Counted from the stretch's first letter, positions 4,936 to 35,349 are shown. The stretch is DNA of 42,472 nucleotides from a virus (UHGV-0206950); one strand, 5' to 3'. The notes: generated from the letters alone by a model not told the origin. Made by a program: numbers and translations.

Positions 4936-7067
4936 GAGAAATCATCGTTGATAATTTTGCTGGTGGTGGCGGTGCGTCAACCGGTATTGAAATGGCGATC
5001 GGTCGCAGTGTTGATATAGCAATCAACCACGATGAGAACGCTGTGGCGATGCACACTACGAATCACCCTGATACGCTGCACTATTGCGAGTCTGTGTATG
5101 AGGTTCGCCCAAAGGTAGCAACTGCGGGGCGCCCGGTGGCGCTGGCGTGGTTTTCTCCTGATTGCCGCCACTTTTCTAAAGCCAAGGGCGCTAAACCTGT
5201 CGAGAAAGCTATCCGTGGACTGGCATGGGTTGTGCTGCGTTGGGGGCTGGATGTTGAACCACGGGTAATGAAACTGGAGAACGTCGAAGAGTTTAAAACG
5301 TGGGGACCATTATTACGTGAAATGCCATTCATCAGTCACGCGGATCGCTTTCTTGATGAATTTATCGGACCACCTGAGCCAGTTGAACAGCGTCCCGACC
5401 CAGCTCGAATTGGTGAAACTTTTAACGCCTTTGTCGCAATGCTTACAACCGGCATTTCTGCAGATCATCCGGCGCTGGCAGAATGCTGTGAGTTTCTGAA
5501 TATTTCGCTTGATAGCGATGACGCCGCGCGGCTGGTAAAAGGCCTGGGCTATGTAGTTGAGTATCGCGAACTGCGCGCCTGTGACTATGGCGCACCGACA
5601 ATCAGAAAGCGTTTCTTCATGGTTATGCGACGTGATGGGAAGCCGATTGTATGGCCGGAACCAACGCATGGGGATCCGAAATCACCTGCGGTTCAGGCTG
5701 GCAGGCTGGCGCCATGGCGTACAGCTGCGGAGTGTATCGACTGGTCAATTCCGGCTCTATCGATATTCGACCGCAAAAAGCCGCTTGCAGAAAATACCCT
5801 GAAGCGGATCGCGCGCGGCATACAGCGCTTTGTTATCGACAGTGCGTCGCCGTTCATCGTGAAGTGCAATCACACCAGCACCAAAACGAGTTACGACTGT
5901 TTCCGAGGTCAAGCGCTGGGCGAACCTTTGCAGACCATTACCAAAACCCACGGCTACGCGTTAGCCGTTCCACATCTGACAAAGTTCCGTACTGGCGCAA
6001 CCGGGCAGCCCGTTACCGAACCGGTACCGACAGTTACCGCTGGCACGTCAAAACGCCCGGGCGGGAATGGGCATGCACTCGGGATTGTTGAGGCTGCACT
6101 GACACCATTCCTGGCGGGTAATGGTGGTAGTGAATACCAGGCTAAACCGCGCCCGCTGGATAAACCTGCTCACACCATTTTGAAGCAATCCCGCGCCTGT
6201 CTGGTTGCGCCAGTGATAGCCCGCCAGTTTGGGGCCAGCATCGGCCACCGGGCAGATGAACCGAGCGCAACTATCACCGCTGGTGGTGGTGGTAAATCTC
6301 AACTGGTAACACCAACGTTGATCCAGATGGGCTATGGGGAACGTCCCGGACAAGAACCGCGTGTGCTGCGACTGGATAACCCGCTGGGTACCGTTACTGC
6401 AGGTGGGAATAAATTCGCGACGGTGAGCGCGTTCCTGGCAAAGCATTACGGCGGCAACTATACGGGCCCGGGCGTCGGTTTAGATGAGCCTGTTCATTCA
6501 GTTACCACGGTTGATCACCACGCAGTTGTCGCTGCGCATTTGATGGTCAATAACACCGGACATCCCGGCGGCACACTGGACAATCCGGCTCATACTGTAA
6601 CGACAGGAAATCATCATGCAGTGGTTGCCTCCCATCTGGTGAAACTGCGAGGTACCTGCCGGGATGGGCAGCCAACCAGTGAACCAGTGCCAACGGTGAC
6701 GGCGGGCGGGCTGCACGTAGGGGAGGTGAAAACCACTCTTGCGGTCGATGAGTACGACGAATATCGCGCTCAGCAGACGCTTGAGTTTCTGCGGGAATAC
6801 TGCGGCGAGGATTGCGACGGGCTGGTGACAGTTGGCGGCATAACTTACCGCATCGTTGATATTGGCATGCGTATGCTGCAACCGCACGAGCTATACCGTG
6901 CGCAGGGCTTCCCGGAGTGGTACATCATCGACCAGGACTATCGGGGCAAGAAGTATGCGAAAGACAAGCAGGTTGCGCGATGCGGTAACGCCGTGCCACC
7001 GCCGTTTGCAGAGGCGCTGGTGAAGGCTAATTTGCCTGAATTATGCGTAAGCAGGGAGGCCGCGTAA
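4932..7067 (+). CDS. DNA (cytosine-5) methyltransferase with greatly expanded variable region containing about 7 tandem TRD-like repeats
   Basis: GTG start overlapping upstream TGA (GTGA); motif I IVDNFAGGGGAS, motif IV-like FSPDCRHFSKA, motif VI KLENVEEF, motif X CGNAVPPPF at C-terminus; repeats PVPTVTAGTS / PSATITAGGGG / PLGTVTAGGNK / PVHSVTTVDHH / PAHTVTTGNHH / PVPTVTAGGLH between motifs VI and X. Confidence 0.75.
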   Translation: MREIIVDNFAGGGGASTGIEMAIGRSVDIAINHDENAVAMHTTNHPDTLHYCESVYEVRPKVATAGRPVALAWFSPDCRHFSKAKGAKPVEKAIRGLAWVVLRWGLDVEPRVMKLENVEEFKTWGPLLREMPFISHADRFLDEFIGPPEPVEQRPDPARIGETFNAFVAMLTTGISADHPALAECCEFLNISLDSDDAARLVKGLGYVVEYRELRACDYGAPTIRKRFFMVMRRDGKPIVWPEPTHGDPKSPAVQAGRLAPWRTAAECIDWSIPALSIFDRKKPLAENTLKRIARGIQRFVIDSASPFIVKCNHTSTKTSYDCFRGQALGEPLQTITKTHGYALAVPHLTKFRTGATGQPVTEPVPTVTAGTSKRPGGNGHALGIVEAALTPFLAGNGGSEYQAKPRPLDKPAHTILKQSRACLVAPVIARQFGASIGHRADEPSATITAGGGGKSQLVTPTLIQMGYGERPGQEPRVLRLDNPLGTVTAGGNKFATVSAFLAKHYGGNYTGPGVGLDEPVHSVTTVDHHAVVAAHLMVNNTGHPGGTLDNPAHTVTTGNHHAVVASHLVKLRGTCRDGQPTSEPVPTVTAGGLHVGEVKTTLAVDEYDEYRAQQTLEFLREYCGEDCDGLVTVGGITYRIVDIGMRMLQPHELYRAQGFPEWYIIDQDYRGKKYAKDKQVARCGNAVPPPFAEALVKANLPELCVSREAA

Positions 7068-7405
7068 TGGCAAAATCAGCAGCAGAGCGCAAAGCAGCAC
7101 AGCGTGCCCGCCAGTCTGCTGCTGGTGGGCGGAAACTTGAACTGGTGCTGGATGCGCAGGAACTGGAAATGCTTGCCCGAAATTGCGCAGATCGTCGACC
7201 AGGCCGCACACCGTATGAAATGGGGGAATATATAGCGCTTCTCATTCGCCAGGATGATGCGCGTGTAAAGGGGCAGATAAAATCAATCCGCGCAAATAAA
7301 TGCAACAAGTGCGGTGACTCATTACCGGTTAAAGCATGCCCATGCGCAGGTGATTCTCAGTGCTGGGTTACACACGGATGGCATGTAGTAAAACTGACAA
7401 CGTGA
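7067..7405 (+). CDS. hypothetical basic/Cys-rich protein (112 aa)
   Basis: TAATG overlap with MTase stop, AGGGAGG SD; C-terminal CNKCGDSLPVKACPCAGDSQC cluster. Confidence 0.45.
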   Translation: MAKSAAERKAAQRARQSAAGGRKLELVLDAQELEMLARNCADRRPGRTPYEMGEYIALLIRQDDARVKGQIKSIRANKCNKCGDSLPVKACPCAGDSQCWVTHGWHVVKLTT

Positions 7406-7413
7406 CATGTCAC
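7400..7413. repeat. perfect 14-bp palindrome CGTGACATGTCACG spanning stop codon of preceding gene
   Basis: read directly. Confidence 0.5.
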
Positions 7414-7436
7414 GATACCCTAACACCTTAAAACGA

Positions 7437-7463
7437 ACCGCCAGAAAATGGCGGTTTTTCTTT
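7437..7463 (+). terminator. rho-independent terminator (7-bp GC stem accgcca/tggcggt, loop gaaaa, T-tract)
   Basis: accgccagaaaatggcggtttttcttt read directly. Confidence 0.7.
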
Positions 7464-7525
7464 ATTAAACAAGTGTGTACAAAATAGCCATGTTTGGTAT
7501 TTTAACGTTTTGTGCCTTTAAAAGT

Positions 7526-7554
7526 TTGCACTTACTGCCACTTGGGAGTATATA
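7526..7554 (+). promoter_or_regulatory. sigma70 promoter: -35 TTGCAC, 17-bp spacer, -10 TATATA
   Basis: near-consensus hexamers with optimal spacing read directly. Confidence 0.6.
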
Positions 7555-7574
7555 TACTGTATGTTTATACAGTA
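7555..7574 (+). promoter_or_regulatory. LexA (SOS) box TACTGTATGTTTATACAGTA abutting the -10 element
   Basis: perfect CTGT-N8-ACAG with TA flanks matching the E. coli LexA consensus taCTGTatatatatACAGta. Confidence 0.7.
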
Positions 7575-7593
7575 TGCTTGTGAGGGAGGGAAC

Positions 7594-7785
7594 GTGTTCA
7601 AAAAGACGGAGGTAGGGGAACATCTCCCCGATAACGGTCGCGTTCTCATAACCTGCAAGAATGGTAAGGTGACGGCACTTAGAAACATCTATGATGATGA
7701 ACATGTCGCGTCACTTAAATCGTTGTTAGAGCTGGCAGAACAAGCAGGTTGTGTCGTTGTTCAAAGAGGCAAAACTAAGATATAA
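7594..7785 (+). CDS. small hypothetical protein (63 aa), first gene downstream of LexA-boxed promoter; candidate SOS-induced antirepressor/regulator
   Basis: GTG start after GAGGGAGGG SD; in-frame ATG at 7561 lies inside the LexA box and lacks SD, so the alternative 74-aa start is less likely. Confidence 0.4.
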   Translation: MFKKTEVGEHLPDNGRVLITCKNGKVTALRNIYDDEHVASLKSLLELAEQAGCVVVQRGKTKI

Positions 7786-7852
7786 TCATGGTATCGGACT
7801 GAACACCCGGAACCTGTATTTCTGAGCAATTGCTGCGCTAAAGGGGAAACCA

Positions 7853-8449
7853 ATGGCGCAGTATTCATTTGTAAAATCAGCAGGCGGAGTATTAATTCCG
7901 GCGACGCCTGACGCACGGGAATTTATCGAGAAAAAATTCCGTCTTGGTGCTGTTTTATATGCTGACTTTAAACAGGCACGTAATGCGGCATTTCACCGTA
8001 AATTTTTTGCACTCCTGAATCTTGGTTTCGATTACTGGCAACCGTCGGGCGGTGCAATATCCCCGGCAGATAAAAAACTGGTTCACGGATATGTTCAGCT
8101 GGTGGCCCATTATGCTGGCCATGAAGAAACACTCCAGGAGCTGGCCGATCAGTATCTGCGTGAAGAAGCAGAAAAACGCGCCGGCAATATCAGCGCTGTA
8201 AAATCCTTTGAAGCATTCAGAGCCTGGGTAACTATCGAGGCGGGTTTTTATACTCAATACGAAATGCCAGACGGTACGACCCGCAACGAACCCAAATCCA
8301 TATCGTTTGCCAAAATGGACGATCTCGAGTTTTCCCAACTTTATAAATCCGTACTTGATGTGCTATGGAATTATATTTTATTCCGCACATTTCCCACCCA
8401 GCAGGCTGCAGAAAACGCCGCCTCACAATTATTCAGTTACGCCGCATGA
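7853..8449 (+). CDS. conserved lambdoid nin-region-type protein (198 aa; DUF1367-like by recollection, function unknown)
   Basis: ORF with AAGGGGAAA SD; position between replication genes and Q; family assignment from memory only. Confidence 0.5.
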   Translation: MAQYSFVKSAGGVLIPATPDAREFIEKKFRLGAVLYADFKQARNAAFHRKFFALLNLGFDYWQPSGGAISPADKKLVHGYVQLVAHYAGHEETLQELADQYLREEAEKRAGNISAVKSFEAFRAWVTIEAGFYTQYEMPDGTTRNEPKSISFAKMDDLEFSQLYKSVLDVLWNYILFRTFPTQQAAENAASQLFSYAA

Positions 8450-9314: not shown

Positions 9315-9364
9315 ATTCAGCTATGCTCGCGAAGCTACACCCGCAGCGATAGATAAAAATTAAT

Positions 9365-9394
9365 AACCCGCCATCCAAGCGGGTTTTGTCGTTT
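9365..9394 (+). terminator. rho-independent terminator (tR'-like) 50 nt after Q stop
   Basis: aacccgc-catccaa-gcgggtt followed by ttgtcgtttc. Confidence 0.65.
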
Positions 9395-9813
9395 CTGGAG
9401 GATAGAAAAATGAAATAGCTAAACGGAAAGACCGCGTTGGATGCCATATTTTGGCAACGTGACGACAGCGTTAATCTGGTCGGGCTCCCATGGCGACGTA
9501 GTGAGGGAGAGGAAGCTTAAAGCATCACTTAGTTACGGCTGGCGCCCGGTTTAACGCATCAGTAGCCCGACAAAGAGATAGTGCGCCGCGACACTCACAG
9601 CGGCAACGATTAACGAGCCTCGGTATTTACCGGGGCTTCATCATATTCAGGGCTCGCTGACGGACGGCTCATAACCCAATCCGACAGGCGCTTGCGCAGA
9701 GCCCGCCTCTATATCAGGCTCCGGGTTCCATCTTCGACATTGCCCCGTAGCATATACAGCCCGATAGCCTGATCCCTTACAACACACAGCGCCCCGATTG
9801 CGGAGGTGCGGAT

Positions 9814-10128
9814 ATGCAACGTATGAACCCAACCGATGGACATAACATGCCGTACTGGTGGTCAGGGCTGCTTGGTTTTTTTTCTGTTCTGAGTTTGCAA
9901 GATTATGTATTTATCCTTGGCGCTCTGATCTCGGCTTATTTCACCATTAAGACCTACTACGCGAAGCGGAAAGAAGAACGTGAACGGCTTGATGAAGAGA
10001 AAAAAAGAACGCAGTTATTGGCTAAGTACCTTGCTGATGTGGCCGTTAAACCAGGTCGAGATCGCCCAGCAGCGGCTGAGGTCGTGACAGAGGCAATGAA
10101 ACGCATCTCTGGAGAGGTAGCAAAATAA
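9814..10128 (+). CDS. holin, two-TMD (class II/pinholin-like)
   Basis: GGAGGTG SD; two hydrophobic segments (WWSGLLGFFSVLSL, YVFILGALISAYFTI) then charged C-terminus; immediately upstream of SAR endolysin. Confidence 0.6.
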   Translation: MQRMNPTDGHNMPYWWSGLLGFFSVLSLQDYVFILGALISAYFTIKTYYAKRKEERERLDEEKKRTQLLAKYLADVAVKPGRDRPAAAEVVTEAMKRISGEVAK

Positions 10129-10130
10129 CT

Positions 10131-10670
10131 ATGGCCTCGACAAAAACAAAATTAAGCGCTGCCGTTCTTGGGCTAGTGCTTGCCGGCGCGCCTGCGTCAG
10201 TAATTCTCGACCAGTTTCTTGATGAAAAAGAGGGTAACAGCCTGACGGCGTATCGCGACGGCGGCGGGATCTGGACGATTTGTCGTGGCGCCACGATGGT
10301 TGATGGCAAGCAGGTAGTGCAGGGCATGAAGCTGTCAGCTGAGAAATGCGTCCAGGTAAACGCCATTGAACGCGATAAAGCGCTGGCGTGGGTTGACCGA
10401 AATATCAAAGTACCACTGACCGAACCACAGAAAGCGGGTATCGCGTCATTTTGCCCATACAACATCGGCCCCGGAAAATGTTTCCCTTCCACGTTCTATA
10501 AGCGCATTAACGCTGGCGACCGTAAAGGAGCCTGTGAAGCTATTCGCTGGTGGATTAAAGACGGTGGCCGTGATTGTCGCCTGACGAAAGGCCAGAAAAA
10601 CGGCTGTTATGGACAGGTAGAACGACGAGACCAGGAAAGCGCGCTGGCGTGCTGGGGGATAGACCAGTGA
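10131..10670 (+). CDS. SAR endolysin (T4-lysozyme-like muramidase, GH24) with N-terminal signal-anchor-release domain
   Basis: catalytic E-8aa-D-5aa-T triad in DEKEGNSLTAYRDGGGIWTICRGAT; N-terminal Gly/Ala-rich weakly hydrophobic TMD LSAAVLGLVLAGAPASVIL. Confidence 0.8.
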   Translation: MASTKTKLSAAVLGLVLAGAPASVILDQFLDEKEGNSLTAYRDGGGIWTICRGATMVDGKQVVQGMKLSAEKCVQVNAIERDKALAWVDRNIKVPLTEPQKAGIASFCPYNIGPGKCFPSTFYKRINAGDRKGACEAIRWWIKDGGRDCRLTKGQKNGCYGQVERRDQESALACWGIDQ

Positions 10671-11197
10671 GGGCTTACTGGAAGCCGCTGGCAGAAATAC
10701 TGCTGGTGGCTTTTTTGTTATGCGCGGTCGCGTACTGGTGTTATTCACGCGGGTATCAGGAGGCGGACTCATCCTGGAAATTGCAGTGGGCACAACGTGA
10801 TCTTACTGATGCGACCATCACATTGCAGCGTGAAGTAACCGAAAGAGCAGAAGAGCAGCGCCGCCAGCGCGCCGTTGATGAGGAACGAGAGAAAGCCGAT
10901 GAAGAACTGGCAAAAGTACAGGCTGATGCTGACGCTGCTAAGCGTGCTCGCGGTGGGTTGCAACAGCAGCTCGCCGAAATACAACGGCAACTCGCAACAA
11001 GTGAAACTGGCAGAATTTCCGCAATTGCAGCAGCAAGCCAGGCAAAAGCCGAGGCCGGAATATTGCTCGCCCAGTTGCTTGGCGAAGCTGACGATCTGGC
11101 GGGAAAATTCGCAAAAGAGGCTGATGAGCGTTATGTCGCCGGCAGTACTTGCGAGCGAACCTACGACAAAGTAACGGGGAACGGCAATGGAAATTAA
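10667..11197 (+). CDS. i-spanin (Rz-like): N-terminal TMD plus coiled-coil periplasmic domain
   Basis: GTG start overlapping endolysin TGA (GTGA); TMD LAEILLVAFLLCAVAYWCY; long charged helical region; C-terminal Cys. Confidence 0.7.
   Translation: MRAYWKPLAEILLVAFLLCAVAYWCYSRGYQEADSSWKLQWAQRDLTDATITLQREVTERAEEQRRQRAVDEEREKADEELAKVQADADAAKRARGGLQQQLAEIQRQLATSETGRISAIAAASQAKAEAGILLAQLLGEADDLAGKFAKEADERYVAGSTCERTYDKVTGNGNGN
10899..11174 (+). CDS. o-spanin (Rz1-like lipoprotein) embedded in +1 frame of i-spanin gene
   Basis: MKNWQKYRLMLTLLSVLAVGC signal with lipobox Cys, Pro-rich mature part, fully nested inside Rz. Confidence 0.6.
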   Translation: MKNWQKYRLMLTLLSVLAVGCNSSSPKYNGNSQQVKLAEFPQLQQQARQKPRPEYCSPSCLAKLTIWRENSQKRLMSVMSPAVLASEPTTK

Positions 11198-30881: not shown

Positions 30882-31587
30882 AATGCTTGAGGATATTATC
30901 CGTTCGTACCTGTACACGCAGTACAATGATGATGACAATATCCGTGCTTTCGTGACTGCGTATAACACGATGGCAAAAAATGTTTATGACTGGATGCGGA
31001 GTGCAAATCTGCCGATTTTTGTTGGTGGTTATAATGTAGGGGATCAACTCAGGTGGATAGCTCGTGGTATCTATGGCGTGAAACCTCCTGTATTGGCAAG
31101 CGGTCGCCAGCTGGTGATCGGGGCATTCAATACATTCACGTTTAACACTGTACCATTTAATACCCGCAAAGTAATAAACCAGTCAGAGCAGGTTGTTGTC
31201 TCTGATGACCTTTTCAAGCGGATTATGACGTGGAATTTCTATAAGGGGGATGGGTTTTACTTCACAATCCCCTGGCTGAAACGTCGGATTATGCGATTTC
31301 TTACGGGGGTGAATGGGGTTGATGTCGTGAACGACCAACACTGGAGTATTTCGGTGTTGTTCTCTGGTAGCGGGGCCAGTGTGTCAATTATCAAGGGCTT
31401 TAGAAAACTGACTAATTCTTCTGTATACAACACACAGACGTTCAATAGCAGGGCTTACAACCAGAAGACAAGCGTTCTAATAAAAAGTAACGAGTATGAG
31501 TACGCATCGCTGTTCAAGCAGGCTTTCGACAGCGGCCTGCTCCACATGCCGTTTTATCAGCCTGTTAGCGTGACTATTGTTGGATGA
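30868..31587 (+). CDS. tail protein I-like
   Basis: 239 aa, follows J-like gene. Confidence 0.4.
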   Translation: MTECEMLEDIIRSYLYTQYNDDDNIRAFVTAYNTMAKNVYDWMRSANLPIFVGGYNVGDQLRWIARGIYGVKPPVLASGRQLVIGAFNTFTFNTVPFNTRKVINQSEQVVVSDDLFKRIMTWNFYKGDGFYFTIPWLKRRIMRFLTGVNGVDVVNDQHWSISVLFSGSGASVSIIKGFRKLTNSSVYNTQTFNSRAYNQKTSVLIKSNEYEYASLFKQAFDSGLLHMPFYQPVSVTIVG

Positions 31588-31630
31588 GTGTTGTAGACTG
31601 CTACAGTCATTTTTAAAACTAGGTACTCTT

Positions 31631-32095
31631 ATGAAACCTTCAGGATTGCTGGTACTGTTTACCTTGACTTTTTCTGGTTTTGTTTTTTCCGGTGTAGATA
31701 ATGTTAATTCACTTGCTGCTCAGGATGAACAACAATTCAAGGACAAAATTAATGAAGTAAAAACTACTGGGTTGAAGCCAACGGATGATAATATTTATAA
31801 TATATGTTTCGCCTCGTCAATGCTGCTTATAAATGCAGCAAATGATGCCGTTAGCGGTCAATATATAGGTGATAAATGGATTGGTGAATTGCTTCTTATT
31901 AATCACAGCGAGTACAGGGATATAGTAAAGAGTTTGATTAAAACTGACAGTGTAATAGAGATAAAAAACAATCCAGAATACTTCAATAAAAATTTTCAGA
32001 TGAAATGCCGCGCATCTCCTGAAGAGTATATTAAAAATTATAAGAATATATTTAGGGTGAAAATGACAAAGGAAGATATAGATAATCAGTGGTGA
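31631..32095 (+). CDS. secreted hypothetical protein (signal peptide), AT-rich moron inside tail module
   Basis: MKPSGLLVLFTLTFSGFVFSG signal-like N-terminus; about 33% GC against about 52% flanks. Confidence 0.45.
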   Translation: MKPSGLLVLFTLTFSGFVFSGVDNVNSLAAQDEQQFKDKINEVKTTGLKPTDDNIYNICFASSMLLINAANDAVSGQYIGDKWIGELLLINHSEYRDIVKSLIKTDSVIEIKNNPEYFNKNFQMKCRASPEEYIKNYKNIFRVKMTKEDIDNQW

Positions 32096-32174: not shown

Positions 32175-33284
32175 ATGGCACTATCTCTTTTAGCCGCTAA
32201 CAATGCTCAGACAGTGCTTGCGGCTGGAATTAGCTCAACGGCAACATCTCTTACCGTAAACACTGGAACAGGAACGCTTTTCCCGTCCCCGGTAACAGGA
32301 ACCAGCTTCTTTAAACTGACGATTATCGATGCTGCCACAGGCTCGCTCACTGAGATTGTTCATGTTACCGCCAGAAATGGTGATGTCTTTACTATCCAGC
32401 GCGGACAGGAAGGAACTGTCGCGCGAGCATGGTCTGCAAATGACATTGCGGCAAACATGATGACGGCCGGAACGCTGTCCTACATCCTTGGGAACTTCCA
32501 GCCGCTGGATCCTACATTGACGGCGTTAGCCGCGTTAGTGGGCGTTGCGAATAAATTACCGTATTTCAACGGGAATGATACTGCAGCTTTGACCGACCTC
32601 ACTCAGGTAGGCCGCGACATTATCGGTAAAAGCACTATTGCCGACATTCTCACATACCTTGGTTTGGTGGATGCATCAGGTATCGTTGGTCGTCTGGTGA
32701 ATATTCAGGTGATTACTTCTACCCAACAGTACGTACCAACAACGGGTGCCAGGAGAATTATTTCTATCTTAACTGGCGGTGGCGCAGGCGGGGCGCCGGC
32801 AAACGCAGCGACAACCAGTCAGATCTATTCAGGAGGCGGTGGAGGGGCTGGGGGGACCGCTATTGGTATTTTCACCTTATCTGCAATCAGTAATTTTCTG
32901 GTGACTGTCGGTTCAGGCGGGGCGTCAAATAATGCTGGCGGCAATTCAACGGCGTTTGGGATGACGGCACGCGGTGGCCTTCCGGGCACTAATAATGTCG
33001 GGACCAGTTCGTCAGCCGGAGGATTCGGCTCGGATTCGTCGGGAGGGTTAATCAATATTTCTGGCGGTGATGGCGGCGATGGACAAGCAGCAACAAGACT
33101 TGTCGGAGGTACTGGCGGTTCATCGTTCTGGGGAGGCTCAGGGCGAAGTGGCTCCGGGAATGGTGCACCAGGGAAGGCGCCCGGCTCTGGAGGTGGCGGT
33201 GCGCGTGATGATCAGCTCTCCGGCACGGCTTATACAGGTGGGGCTGGGGCAGATGGAATTTGTTTAATACTGGAGTTTGCATAA
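32175..33284 (+). CDS. tail fibre protein with Gly-rich C-terminal (variable) domain
   Basis: GGAGG SD; N-terminal fibre-like segment; C-terminal 200 aa rich in GGxGG runs; followed by tail-fibre assembly gene and inverted alternative segment. Confidence 0.6.
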   Translation: MALSLLAANNAQTVLAAGISSTATSLTVNTGTGTLFPSPVTGTSFFKLTIIDAATGSLTEIVHVTARNGDVFTIQRGQEGTVARAWSANDIAANMMTAGTLSYILGNFQPLDPTLTALAALVGVANKLPYFNGNDTAALTDLTQVGRDIIGKSTIADILTYLGLVDASGIVGRLVNIQVITSTQQYVPTTGARRIISILTGGGAGGAPANAATTSQIYSGGGGGAGGTAIGIFTLSAISNFLVTVGSGGASNNAGGNSTAFGMTARGGLPGTNNVGTSSSAGGFGSDSSGGLINISGGDGGDGQAATRLVGGTGGSSFWGGSGRSGSGNGAPGKAPGSGGGGARDDQLSGTAYTGGAGADGICLILEFA

Positions 33285-33691
33285 TGAATATTGCGCTGGT
33301 TTTGAACGGGATCGTTATCAACACGATTATTTGTGAATCAGTAGGACTTGCCGAAGAGTTAAACCCTGAGTGCGTGGCCGTCGATATAGACAGCATTCAT
33401 GCAGGAATTGGCTGGTCGTATGACGGTTCGAAATTTATAGCACCGATTATTGAGAAAACGCCTGAGGAACTTGCTGCGGAAAATCTATCCACAGCTCAAT
33501 CAGAATATGACCGGGCTACCGCTGTTATCAACGGTTTAAATGAGCAGATAGAAGACGCTGATTATGCAGGAACTACCGAAGATGAAGTTCGTTCTGCGCT
33601 GACCGCATGGACGGATTACCGCAAGCAGTTGCGTGCATACATCAAAGTGGGTGACGGTAGAGACTCCCTACCGCCTCAGCCAGATAATTAA
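33284..33691 (+). CDS. tail fibre assembly protein (Tfa-like)
   Basis: TAATG overlap with fibre gene; C-terminal ...RSALTAWTDYRKQLRAYI typical of Tfa proteins. Confidence 0.55.
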   Translation: MNIALVLNGIVINTIICESVGLAEELNPECVAVDIDSIHAGIGWSYDGSKFIAPIIEKTPEELAAENLSTAQSEYDRATAVINGLNEQIEDADYAGTTEDEVRSALTAWTDYRKQLRAYIKVGDGRDSLPPQPDN

Positions 33692-33897
33692 GCAGTTCCC
33701 CACGTGGGTAGCCCATTGCTACCCACAACACGCTTCATTCCCTCCGGTGGTACACCTAAAAACTCCAGAGCCATATCGTCATCGACGGGCTTAATATCAT
33801 CAGGCAAAACGCCATTTGCACGGTATGCGTCGAGTAACACTGTCGGGTAAAATTGATTCGTTGACGCGCTATAAAAGTAAATATTCATTATCACCAC
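33688..33897 (-). CDS. alternative tail fibre assembly protein (inverted orientation; U'-like)
   Basis: N-terminus MNIYFYSASTNQFYP matches common Tfa N-termini; convergent with and overlapping Tfa by 4 nt. Confidence 0.5.
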   Translation of the reverse strand: MVIMNIYFYSASTNQFYPTVLLDAYRANGVLPDDIKPVDDDMALEFLGVPPEGMKRVVGSNGLPTWGTA

Positions 33898-34265
33898 CCC
33901 TTCGCATACCAGTTACATGTCAAATTCGCCGGATTGACGTTATTACCCTCTGCGGTTGCGCAGCCAACTCTGAATTTTGAGTTACTGACAGGGAATGCCT
34001 GTGAAATCTCAGCATATGACGTGTCATTCGGATCTGAGCTAATCAAAACGAACGCACAACGGTTCGGGAACGGGATGACGAAATCCCCATCGCCGTTTCC
34101 ATAATTACCGCGCCCCCACTGCTCCAGAAATCCGTCTGGAGTCAATCGCCACCCGTAATCCGCTTTCAGCGATGTCCACTTGCTCATGTCGGGGATCTGG
34201 TTTGTCCCGGTCCCTACATCCCTTTTTGCCGCTTCTCCCAGACCAACGTTTTTAATAATGATCAT
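33891..34265 (-). CDS. alternative tail fibre C-terminal variable segment (S'v-like) in inverted orientation
   Basis: ORF opposite the fibre gene, lacks own N-terminal constant part; in-frame TAA immediately upstream of its ATG; lies between Tfa' and invertase as in Mu/P1 invertible segments. Confidence 0.45.
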   Translation of the reverse strand: MIIIKNVGLGEAAKRDVGTGTNQIPDMSKWTSLKADYGWRLTPDGFLEQWGRGNYGNGDGDFVIPFPNRCAFVLISSDPNDTSYAEISQAFPVSNSKFRVGCATAEGNNVNPANLTCNWYAKGW

Positions 34266-34312
34266 TTATCGCTCAGATGGCATGATTCCGGCCTTTTGCA
34301 GGAAGAAAACTC

Positions 34313-34733
34313 ATGCTGATTGGCTATGTACGCGTGTCAACAAATGACCAGAACACTGCACTCCAGCGAAACGCGCTCGAGAGTGCAGGATGTGAACTGA
34401 TATTCGAAGATAAGATCAGCGGTAAGGTGTCCGACAGACCAGGATTAAAATACGAGTACGCCTATGGGGAGATTCTTCTTTCATGTTATGGGTGCACTGG
34501 CCGAAATGGAAAGGGAGCTTATTGTCGAACGCACCCGCGCCGGTTTAGCAGCCGCACGCGCAGAAGGGCGGATAGGTGGAAGGCGCCCGAAGTTTAGTAG
34601 TGAAGAATGGGCGCAAATGGGACGATTGATAAAAAATGGAATGGCGCGAAAGCAGGTTTCAATTATTTACGATGTTGGAGTATCTACACTGTACAAAAAA
34701 TTCCCTGTGTCTATATGTGAGGTCGGAAACTAG
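34313..34733 (+). pseudogene. Gin/Hin/Cin-family serine DNA invertase disrupted by internal deletion of about 140 bp with frameshift
   Basis: N-terminus MLIGYVRVSTNDQNTALQRNALESAGCELIFEDKISGKVSDRPGLK matches invertases; after RPGLK the frame is lost; downstream ORF in another frame resumes MGRFFFHVMGALAEMERELIVERTRAGLAAARAEGRIGGRRPKF...YDVGVSTLYKK; about 50 residues of the catalytic domain missing. Confidence 0.7.
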
Positions 34734-34993
34734 TTGAACCTACCGTGGGGGTTATCAATACCTGCATCCATGTAGTTTATTGCTTTCTGTAACTCCTTTA
34801 TCAGTTCTTCTGCACGAGTACGTGAGATACACATAAACTGATCTGGGAATTCCTTTACTGGCCAATGTGGGATGCATGCCATGTTATCGATGAATGATGC
34901 AGACAGATAGACTTCATTTGTGAGCAGGGAATAGCTGACGTTAAAACCAGCTAATTCTTGTAGGCTGCTGACATTGGATTCTCTGTTTTTCAT
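34730..34993 (-). CDS. hypothetical protein (87 aa), AT-rich moron adjacent to attP
   Basis: low-GC ORF with AT-rich upstream region 34994-35170. Confidence 0.35.
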   Translation of the reverse strand: MKNRESNVSSLQELAGFNVSYSLLTNEVYLSASFIDNMACIPHWPVKEFPDQFMCISRTRAEELIKELQKAINYMDAGIDNPHGRFN

Positions 34994-35182
34994 GATAGTC
35001 TCGGTACTGTGTTTTTATACAGCTACTATCCTCAATAGCAGATAATCAGTCAAGACATAGTGCATAATTTAGAAGAATATCGACGTTTGCGTTGTACCTA
35101 ATGTATTGTTTTTGAGGTGCTTTTTGTATTGATGTTATTCTTTTTTATTATGTTATAATTTTGATTTTTAAGTGTTATTTTT

Positions 35183-35242
35183 CGGTCTTGAAAACCGGCG
35201 ACCCGAAAGGGTTCTAGAGTTCGAATCTCTACGCTTCCGCCA
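35183..35242 (+). other. attP core: 60 nt matching the 3' part of tRNA-Ser(UGA) (anticodon stem-loop, long variable arm, T-arm, acceptor 3' strand, CCA); not a complete tRNA
   Basis: CGGTCTTGAAAACCGGCGACCCGAAAGGGTTCTAGAGTTCGAATCTCTACGCTTCCGCCA versus E. coli serT 3' end ...CCGGTCTTGAAAACCGGCGACCCGAAAGGGTTCCAGAGTTCGAATCTCTGCGCTTCCGCCA (from memory); 5' acceptor/D-arm absent. Confidence 0.7.
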
Positions 35243-35250
35243 AATTTAAC

Positions 35251-35286
35251 AAGGGGTTAGCTAAATGCTAACCCCTTTGTTTTTTG
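35251..35286 (+). terminator. rho-independent terminator (11-bp stem aaggggttagc/gctaacccctt, T6 tract) just after tRNA-like core
   Basis: read directly. Confidence 0.65.
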
Positions 35287-35349
35287 AGCGGAAGAATAAA
35301 GAAAGAATATTCGAAAAGAATATCCACTCCCTCCCAATTGCATAAAAAA

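Follow-up and report, generated by a model that had tools for sequence, protein, structure and literature searches.

A tail-fibre inversion cassette in a temperate phage is found in both orientations beside the same internally deleted Gin-family invertase gene

The phage DNA analyzed here (UHGV-0206950; 42,472 nucleotides [nt], referred to below as the window) carries an invertible tail-fibre cassette at positions 32175 to 34733, followed directly by a gene for a Gin/Pin-family DNA invertase that has lost part of its coding sequence. Although that invertase is dead, both isomers of the cassette occur in copies of this phage clone that carry the same broken gene, which means that the switch has flipped since the deletion arose. 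The switch is therefore not frozen and is presumably flipped by an invertase encoded elsewhere. We consider it probable that this is a non-autonomous Din-family switch of the receptor-binding end of the fibre, which a resident invertase flips in trans.

The gene order of the cassette is fibre (+), Tfa (+), Tfa' (-), alternative fibre C-terminus (-), and invertase (+), as a first-pass annotation of the sequence had claimed, and its identification as an invertible tail-fibre cassette of the Mu G or e14 P type is supported by the features below. (Lengths are given in base pairs [bp] and amino acids [aa]; ORF, open reading frame.)

32175-33284, + strand: tail-fibre gene, 369 aa, with a Gly_rich_2 C-terminus (PF21722)
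32175-32658, + strand: constant 5' part of the tail-fibre gene, approximately residues 1 to 161, outside the invertible segment (ORF and PHROG tail-fibre matches)
32659-34246, no strand: invertible segment, 1,588 bp from central dinucleotide to central dinucleotide
32659-33284, + strand: variable fibre C-terminus A, a glycine-rich domain, expressed in the window orientation (PHROG tail-fibre families)
33284-33691, + strand: Tfa, tail-fibre assembly protein, 135 aa, cognate to end A (phrog_188 and phrog_136, tail fibre assembly)
33688-33888, - strand: short Tfa', 66 aa from the ATG at 33888 in an ORF that reaches a GTG at 33897, cognate to end B (phrog_188, E = 1e-14)
33891-34246, - strand: variable fibre C-terminus B, a gp53-like C-terminal domain (Gp53-like_C, PF21882, E = 3.6e-11), silent in the window orientation
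34313-34450, + strand: invertase remnant, codons 1 to 46, with catalytic Ser9 (YVRVSTNDQ; Pfam Resolvase positions 2 to 53)
34451-34733, + strand: invertase remnant, residues 95 to 188 in another frame, covering the last part of the catalytic domain, helix E, and the HTH_7 DNA-binding domain
34449-34450, no strand: deletion junction, TTAAA/ATACGAG, with 1 nt of microhomology

The reference for the deletion was the intact 188-aa invertase gene of a related prophage in Escherichia coli strain 44, which has 91% nucleotide identity. Alignment to this homologue shows a single 146-bp deletion (48 codons plus 2 nt) that removes residues 47 to 94 and shifts the frame. By tblastn, residues 1 to 46 are 100% identical to the E. 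coli 44 invertase and residues 95 to 188 are 96.8% identical in a different frame. What remains is one frameshifted ORF of 94 aa (34313-34597, +) and one of 89 aa (34464-34733, +, ATG at 34464), the latter matching the C-terminal end of the Resolvase domain and Pfam HTH_7 (E = 4.6e-14). The lost residues include the DRLGR motif, the arginines of which are conserved in the active site of serine recombinases (gamma-delta resolvase, Gin); against the Gin crystal structures 3UJ3 and 4M6F, the intact sibling invertase gives E = 1e-88. Because residues 47 to 94, including DRLGR, are missing and the remnants lie in two frames, the adjacent gene is a dead Gin/Pin-family invertase pseudogene. The first-pass annotation had described an intact N-terminus containing the catalytic Ser, a loss of about 50 codons with a frameshift, and inactivation of the invertase by internal deletion, and the measured boundaries bear out all three. 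No second serine invertase was found by tblastn in the 42.5-kb window.

Residual activity of the invertase fragments, as a split enzyme or through translational frameshifting, might be imagined, given that the segment with catalytic Ser9 and a complete helix-turn-helix (HTH) DNA-binding domain are still encoded. However, residues 47 to 94 are physically gone and cannot be restored by a frameshift, and we regard the chance of such activity as negligible. We also considered whether an invertase acting at secondary sites had made the deletion, and rejected this; the breakpoints are not at the center of any gix-like sequence and share only 1 nt of microhomology.

When the 89-aa remnant ORF was looked up by exact match, six public contigs were returned. 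Contig L003 (SRR8652843, 7,090 bp) has the opposite orientation from the window, in that the constant fibre part continues into the gp53-like end and the glycine-rich end is turned toward the invertase. When positions 32659 to 34246 of the window are reverse-complemented in silico, the result matches L003 with 0 mismatches over 7,090 bp. The inverted window contains L004 (SRR20302200, 2,033 bp) and L005 (ERR15650389, 1,863 bp) base for base, and the window in its given orientation likewise contains L006 (ERZ27238309, 1,096 bp) and L007 (ERR4405750, 995 bp). These five independent assemblies have the identical deletion junction and are 100% identical to the phage. Among the window and L003 to L007, the inverted orientation is found in 3 of the 6 deletion-bearing sequences, which is not the single fixed orientation that a locked switch demands. 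The fibre product is 369 aa (Gly_rich_2) in the window state versus 279 aa (Gp53-like_C) in L003. Relatives that have an intact invertase are also found in both orientations (L021 and L026 versus L022 and L025).

The base-identical isomers share the deletion junction; therefore, the deletion is real and the flipping postdates it. An assembly error, which the first-pass annotation had named as a possible source of the deletion, is contradicted by the recurrence of the junction in five independent assemblies. Its proposal that the switch is frozen, so that only one host-range variant can be expressed, does not stand, since both orientations occur with the same deletion (L003 to L005 versus L006 and L007). 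Detection of both orientations, which it had named as the observation that would refute its reading, has been achieved across samples, but not yet within a single lysogen population.

The position of the exchange can be read from the isomers. One hybrid site, TTCTCACATACCTTGGTCTGGGAGAA, is seen in L003, and the other, ATCCACCAAACCAACGTTTTTAATAA, is seen in L003, L004, and L005. In L003, the hybrid sites place the exchange within TTGGT, the 5-bp core that both sites share and that includes the central dinucleotide. A core of this length does not suffice for RecA-dependent homologous recombination, nor for a chimera made by a k-mer assembler. The deletion or the inversion could in principle be a mis-assembly or a chimera with another cassette-bearing phage, such as the Mu-like prophages L008 and L009. 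Nearly identical cassettes do occur in other prophages that are able to co-occur in metagenomes, and the contigs derive from short-read assemblies. However, phage-specific constant sequence joins the opposite cassette end over 5 shared bases, for which assemblers running at k = 31 or k = 111 need real reads, and the same structures come from independent runs and different assemblers, with the deletion junction present in 6 sequences. We therefore judge an assembly artefact to be very unlikely. Two further contigs that end at crossover sites, L013 and L014, were examined as candidates for mixed orientations in one sample and were rejected; they have single-nucleotide polymorphisms or other flanks and represent other copies of the cassette.

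A switch that is truly frozen would require that the two orientations are an older polymorphism and that the deletion either spread between them by homologous recombination with an intact sibling or arose twice. The cis invertase is certainly dead, and relatives with an intact invertase are present in the same kinds of samples, including runs of the same SRR86528xx accession series. Nevertheless, an independent origin of the identical junction in 6 sequences, with 1 nt of microhomology, is very unlikely; with zero substitutions between the isomers over 7,090 bp, any spread would have to be very recent; and the exact intact version of the deleted allele was not found, two candidate sequences having been tested. 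In addition, a co-infecting intact sibling would itself supply invertase in trans. On balance, we think that a frozen switch is an improbable explanation.

Exact searches for the deletion junction found nothing in IMG/VR, in the GTDB species-representative genomes, or in JGI metagenomes, and the allele is on record solely in Logan, ENA, and NCBI TPA. By exact look-up, the 94-aa N-terminal ORF and the 369-aa fibre had no match among recorded proteins, the 89-aa ORF alone being on record. Neither the INPHARED phage collection nor the set of 5,426 complete E. coli genomes contains a near-identical copy of the phage.

The segment is bounded by two crossover sites, and a stretch that resembles a recombinational enhancer is located within the 5' part of the invertase gene.

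32647-32672, no strand: left 26-bp crossover site, TTCTCACATACC TT GGTTTGGTGGAT, with central TT at 32659-32660, in frame inside the fibre gene
34233-34258, no strand: right 26-bp crossover site, TTCTCCCAGACC AA CGTTTTTAATAA, with central AA at 34245-34246, kept in E. coli 44, L008, and L009
34330-34405, no strand: putative Fis-bound recombinational enhancer stretch, homologous to the 5' region of gin and hin that bears the enhancer, retained

The crossover sites were located by a consensus half-site scan together with comparison of the isomers. For the scan, every 26-mer of the window (42,447) was scored on both halves against the Din half-site consensus TTMTCNNAAACC, with a maximum of 20. 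The right site is the best of all of these (17/20) and the left site is second (16/20), while the next 26-mer scores 14. The two sites have TT at their centers on opposite strands (+ at the left site, - at the right), which is the inverted orientation, and both resemble gixL and gixR of Mu (NC_000929). A generic inverted-repeat search missed them because the identical core is only 5 bp. Clean sites thus exist, where the first-pass annotation had been unable to identify any; the first of its two degenerate candidate ranges (32620-32670) overlaps the left site, but the second (34266-34300) lies immediately to the right of the true right site. The window scan gave no further sites of the multiple-inversion type; there are only two high scorers, and the next candidates, at 14/20 or less, are outside the segment. 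The reading frame is preserved at the core (TAC CTT GGT versus AAC GTT GGT), and similarity of the fibre gene to related E. coli prophages ends at ~32663, which is at the crossover core.

The first 138 nt of the invertase gene have 78% identity to Mu gin. Within the putative enhancer, candidate G-N13-C cores at 34334-34348 and 34383-34397 are identical to Mu at 14/15 and 15/15 positions, respectively. The stretch begins ~95 bp from the center of the right site, and ~45 bp separate its end from the deletion; the Hin enhancer is ~100 bp from hixL (PMC3798978). These similarities suggest that positions 34330 to 34405 may still work as a Fis-bound enhancer.

Based on these observations, we propose the following mechanism. 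The fibre promoter and the first ~161 codons stay fixed, and the 1,588-bp segment between the inverted 26-bp sites carries two convergent modules, each consisting of a variable fibre C-terminus and its chaperone. Module A is the glycine-rich domain with the 135-aa Tfa, and module B the gp53-like domain with the 66-aa Tfa. Exchange at the central TT/AA keeps the frame and joins either A (369-aa product) or B (279-aa product) to the constant part. With its own invertase dead, the phage retains the cis elements, namely both sites and the gin-like enhancer region, and a Din-family invertase, encoded by the host or by another prophage in the same cell, would flip the segment together with Fis. With no invertase of its own, the segment must therefore be flipped in trans, and the switch would be locked only in hosts without a Din-type enzyme.

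Trans action is well established for the Din family: the P segment of e14 is inverted by PinQ, PinR, and PinE (PMC12529663), and e14 carries a function that complements Mu gin (reference 65 of PMC12529663). Potential donors are common, as a full-length-type homologue (at least 80% of gene length) is present in 2,677 of the 5,426 complete E. coli genomes. Several points weigh against flipping in trans. No trans invertase was identified for these samples, the window having come without a host genome, and the two orientations are from different samples and are not demonstrably one clonal lysogen. Enhancer function and Fis binding are predicted from homology to gin and hin. Finally, an intact sibling allele could have existed, and the deletion could have passed from one isomer to the other by recombination on the right-hand side of the segment.

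A further idea goes beyond flipping in trans. The phage might have outsourced control of its host-range switch, such that flipping would take place only in lysogens that have another Din invertase, and the 89-aa remnant might, in addition, bind at the crossover sites, with a modulating or damping effect on inversion in trans. This C-terminal remnant, which comprises part of helix E and the HTH domain (34464-34733), is conserved in all copies, yet we regard the idea as doubtful. If it is true, which fibre the released virions carry would be set by the prophages present in their last host.

Among the closest known systems is the e14 P segment with PinE of E. coli K-12 (stfP-tfaP-tfaE-stfE-pinE), which has the same gene order and is 1,797 bp, compared with 1,588 bp here (PMC12529663). 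Both have two convergent pairs of fibre end and Tfa, a crossover within the fibre gene, and a Din-family invertase gene directly downstream, and the e14 segment can be inverted by enzymes encoded elsewhere, PinQ and PinR (PMC12529663). Unlike in e14, the cis invertase here is internally deleted and the variable domains are Gly_rich_2 and Gp53-like_C; moreover, e14 is a cryptic prophage, whereas the window is a complete excised phage genome with attP. The Mu G/Gin system shares with this cassette 26-bp sites with AAACC-type half-sites and a layout of constant (Sc) and variable (Sv) fibre parts, and the two invertase remnants have 83% and 68% identity to Mu Gin. In contrast, the Mu G segment is twice the size, its core dinucleotide is TC/GA rather than TT/AA, its sites are 34-bp identical repeats rather than imperfect inverted repeats, its phage backbone is unrelated, and its invertase is not inactive as it is here. 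With two sites, the cassette is a simple switch and differs from multiple-inversion, shufflon-like arrays (p15B Min; R64 shufflon). It is an example of well-known Din-type tail-fibre inversion and is notable only as a natural, invertase-less, trans-dependent one.

End A matches Pfam Gly_rich_2 (PF21722) at E = 1.5e-7 over residues 182 to 365. The fibre gene overlaps the 135-aa Tfa gene in the sequence TAATG; this Tfa matches Caudo_TAP at E = 5.5e-4, slightly under the Pfam cut-off, and an identical protein is found at the same position in the Mu-like prophages L008 and L009. End B by itself is a 124-aa ORF (33891-34265, -, ATG at 34265) with an in-frame TAA directly before the ATG, and so, as the first-pass annotation had recognized, it can be expressed solely once it is fused to the constant part. 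The short Tfa' is a natural short form, because a 67-aa protein with 86% identity is annotated as a tail fibre assembly protein at the same position in a P2-like E. coli prophage. Truncation of Tfa' (in its 69-aa form) was considered and rejected on the basis of this annotation and of its own PHROG family. At the meeting point of the convergent Tfa genes there is a hairpin (33703-33725) with a 9-bp stem (GTGGGTAGC-CCATT-GCTACCCAC), which may be a bidirectional terminator; contig L004 begins inside it.

The cassette has moved between unrelated phage types (the present phage and Mu-like and P2-like prophages), with its boundaries at the crossover sites. In the Mu-like prophages L008 and L009 it is nearly identical, and the identity starts and stops exactly at both crossover sites. 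The constant fibre part, up to ...ACATACCTTGGT, is joined at the crossover core to at least four unrelated variable ends (L032 to L036, from IMG/VR and metagenome contigs). Because these ends are joined exactly at the core, the inversion site doubles as a hotspot of module exchange. Such joins are the classical mosaic behavior of phage tail-fibre genes, and Sandmeier, Iida, and Arber reportedly described exchange of tail-fibre end cassettes at inversion crossover sites (P1 C segment, p15B Min). The swap seen here, with borders at the crossover sites, resembles that exchange.

Both Mu-like prophages come from one metagenome (ERZ28602776), with the cassette at approximately 9360 to 10980 of the locus. 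L009 has an intact 184-aa invertase. L008 has kept the right crossover site and lacks the invertase gene altogether, with DinI following, and so is another invertase-less cassette. At 12126-14249 of L008, a few kilobases from this Mu-like prophage, a flagellin gene precedes one for an FljA-like protein that represses the other flagellin gene (PF03614); upstream of the flagellin gene, no hin-like gene was called. The closest E. coli relative of the tail module, L031 (E. coli ST536, NZ_CM174221.1, locus 5935-8228), shows the opposite decay, with an intact 188-aa invertase and one fibre gene plus one Tfa gene upstream, and no alternative cassette annotated.

An intact invertase is present in relatives L001, L009, and L021 to L031. 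After the invertase come a conserved 87-aa ORF, the attP region with the 3' half of a tRNA-Ser gene, and the integrase. The 87-aa ORF (34730-34993, -; phrog_17793, E = 7e-46) overlaps the invertase stop codon by 4 bp and travels with the invertase at each related locus seen (L001 and L021 to L031). On the other side of the cassette, between the baseplate gene and the fibre gene, is an AT-rich ORF of 172 aa (31577-32095, +; 33% G+C versus 50% for the window) with a signal-peptide-like N-terminus and no match in Pfam or PHROG. In L032 this slot holds a different, lipoprotein-like ORF, and the 172-aa ORF looks like a moron.

The core of the attP region (34994-35349) is at 35184-35243; it includes the terminator hairpin and corresponds to the 3' half of a serT-type tRNA-Ser, from the anticodon arm to the CCA. 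It differs from the E. coli copy in the T-stem, where a C:G pair has become T:A in a compensatory change (ttcTagag...ctctAcgc). The related prophages L001 and L031 are at serT-yccA in E. coli. Three independent contigs, L004, L005, and L007, stop at ...cgaaagggt, right before the first T-stem difference, which fits an assembly that branches at this point into a phage copy and a host copy. Because of the attP core and the ending of contigs at this phage/host branch, we conclude that the window is the excised or circular form of a temperate phage.

These results provide a clean natural example in which base-perfect public isomers place the crossover within 5 bp without an experiment. Where an invertible segment lies beside a deleted invertase gene, it does not follow that the switch is locked, because invertases of the Din family work in trans and enterobacterial genomes commonly encode them. 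Both fibre variants should therefore be considered when such phages are annotated and when their host range is predicted.

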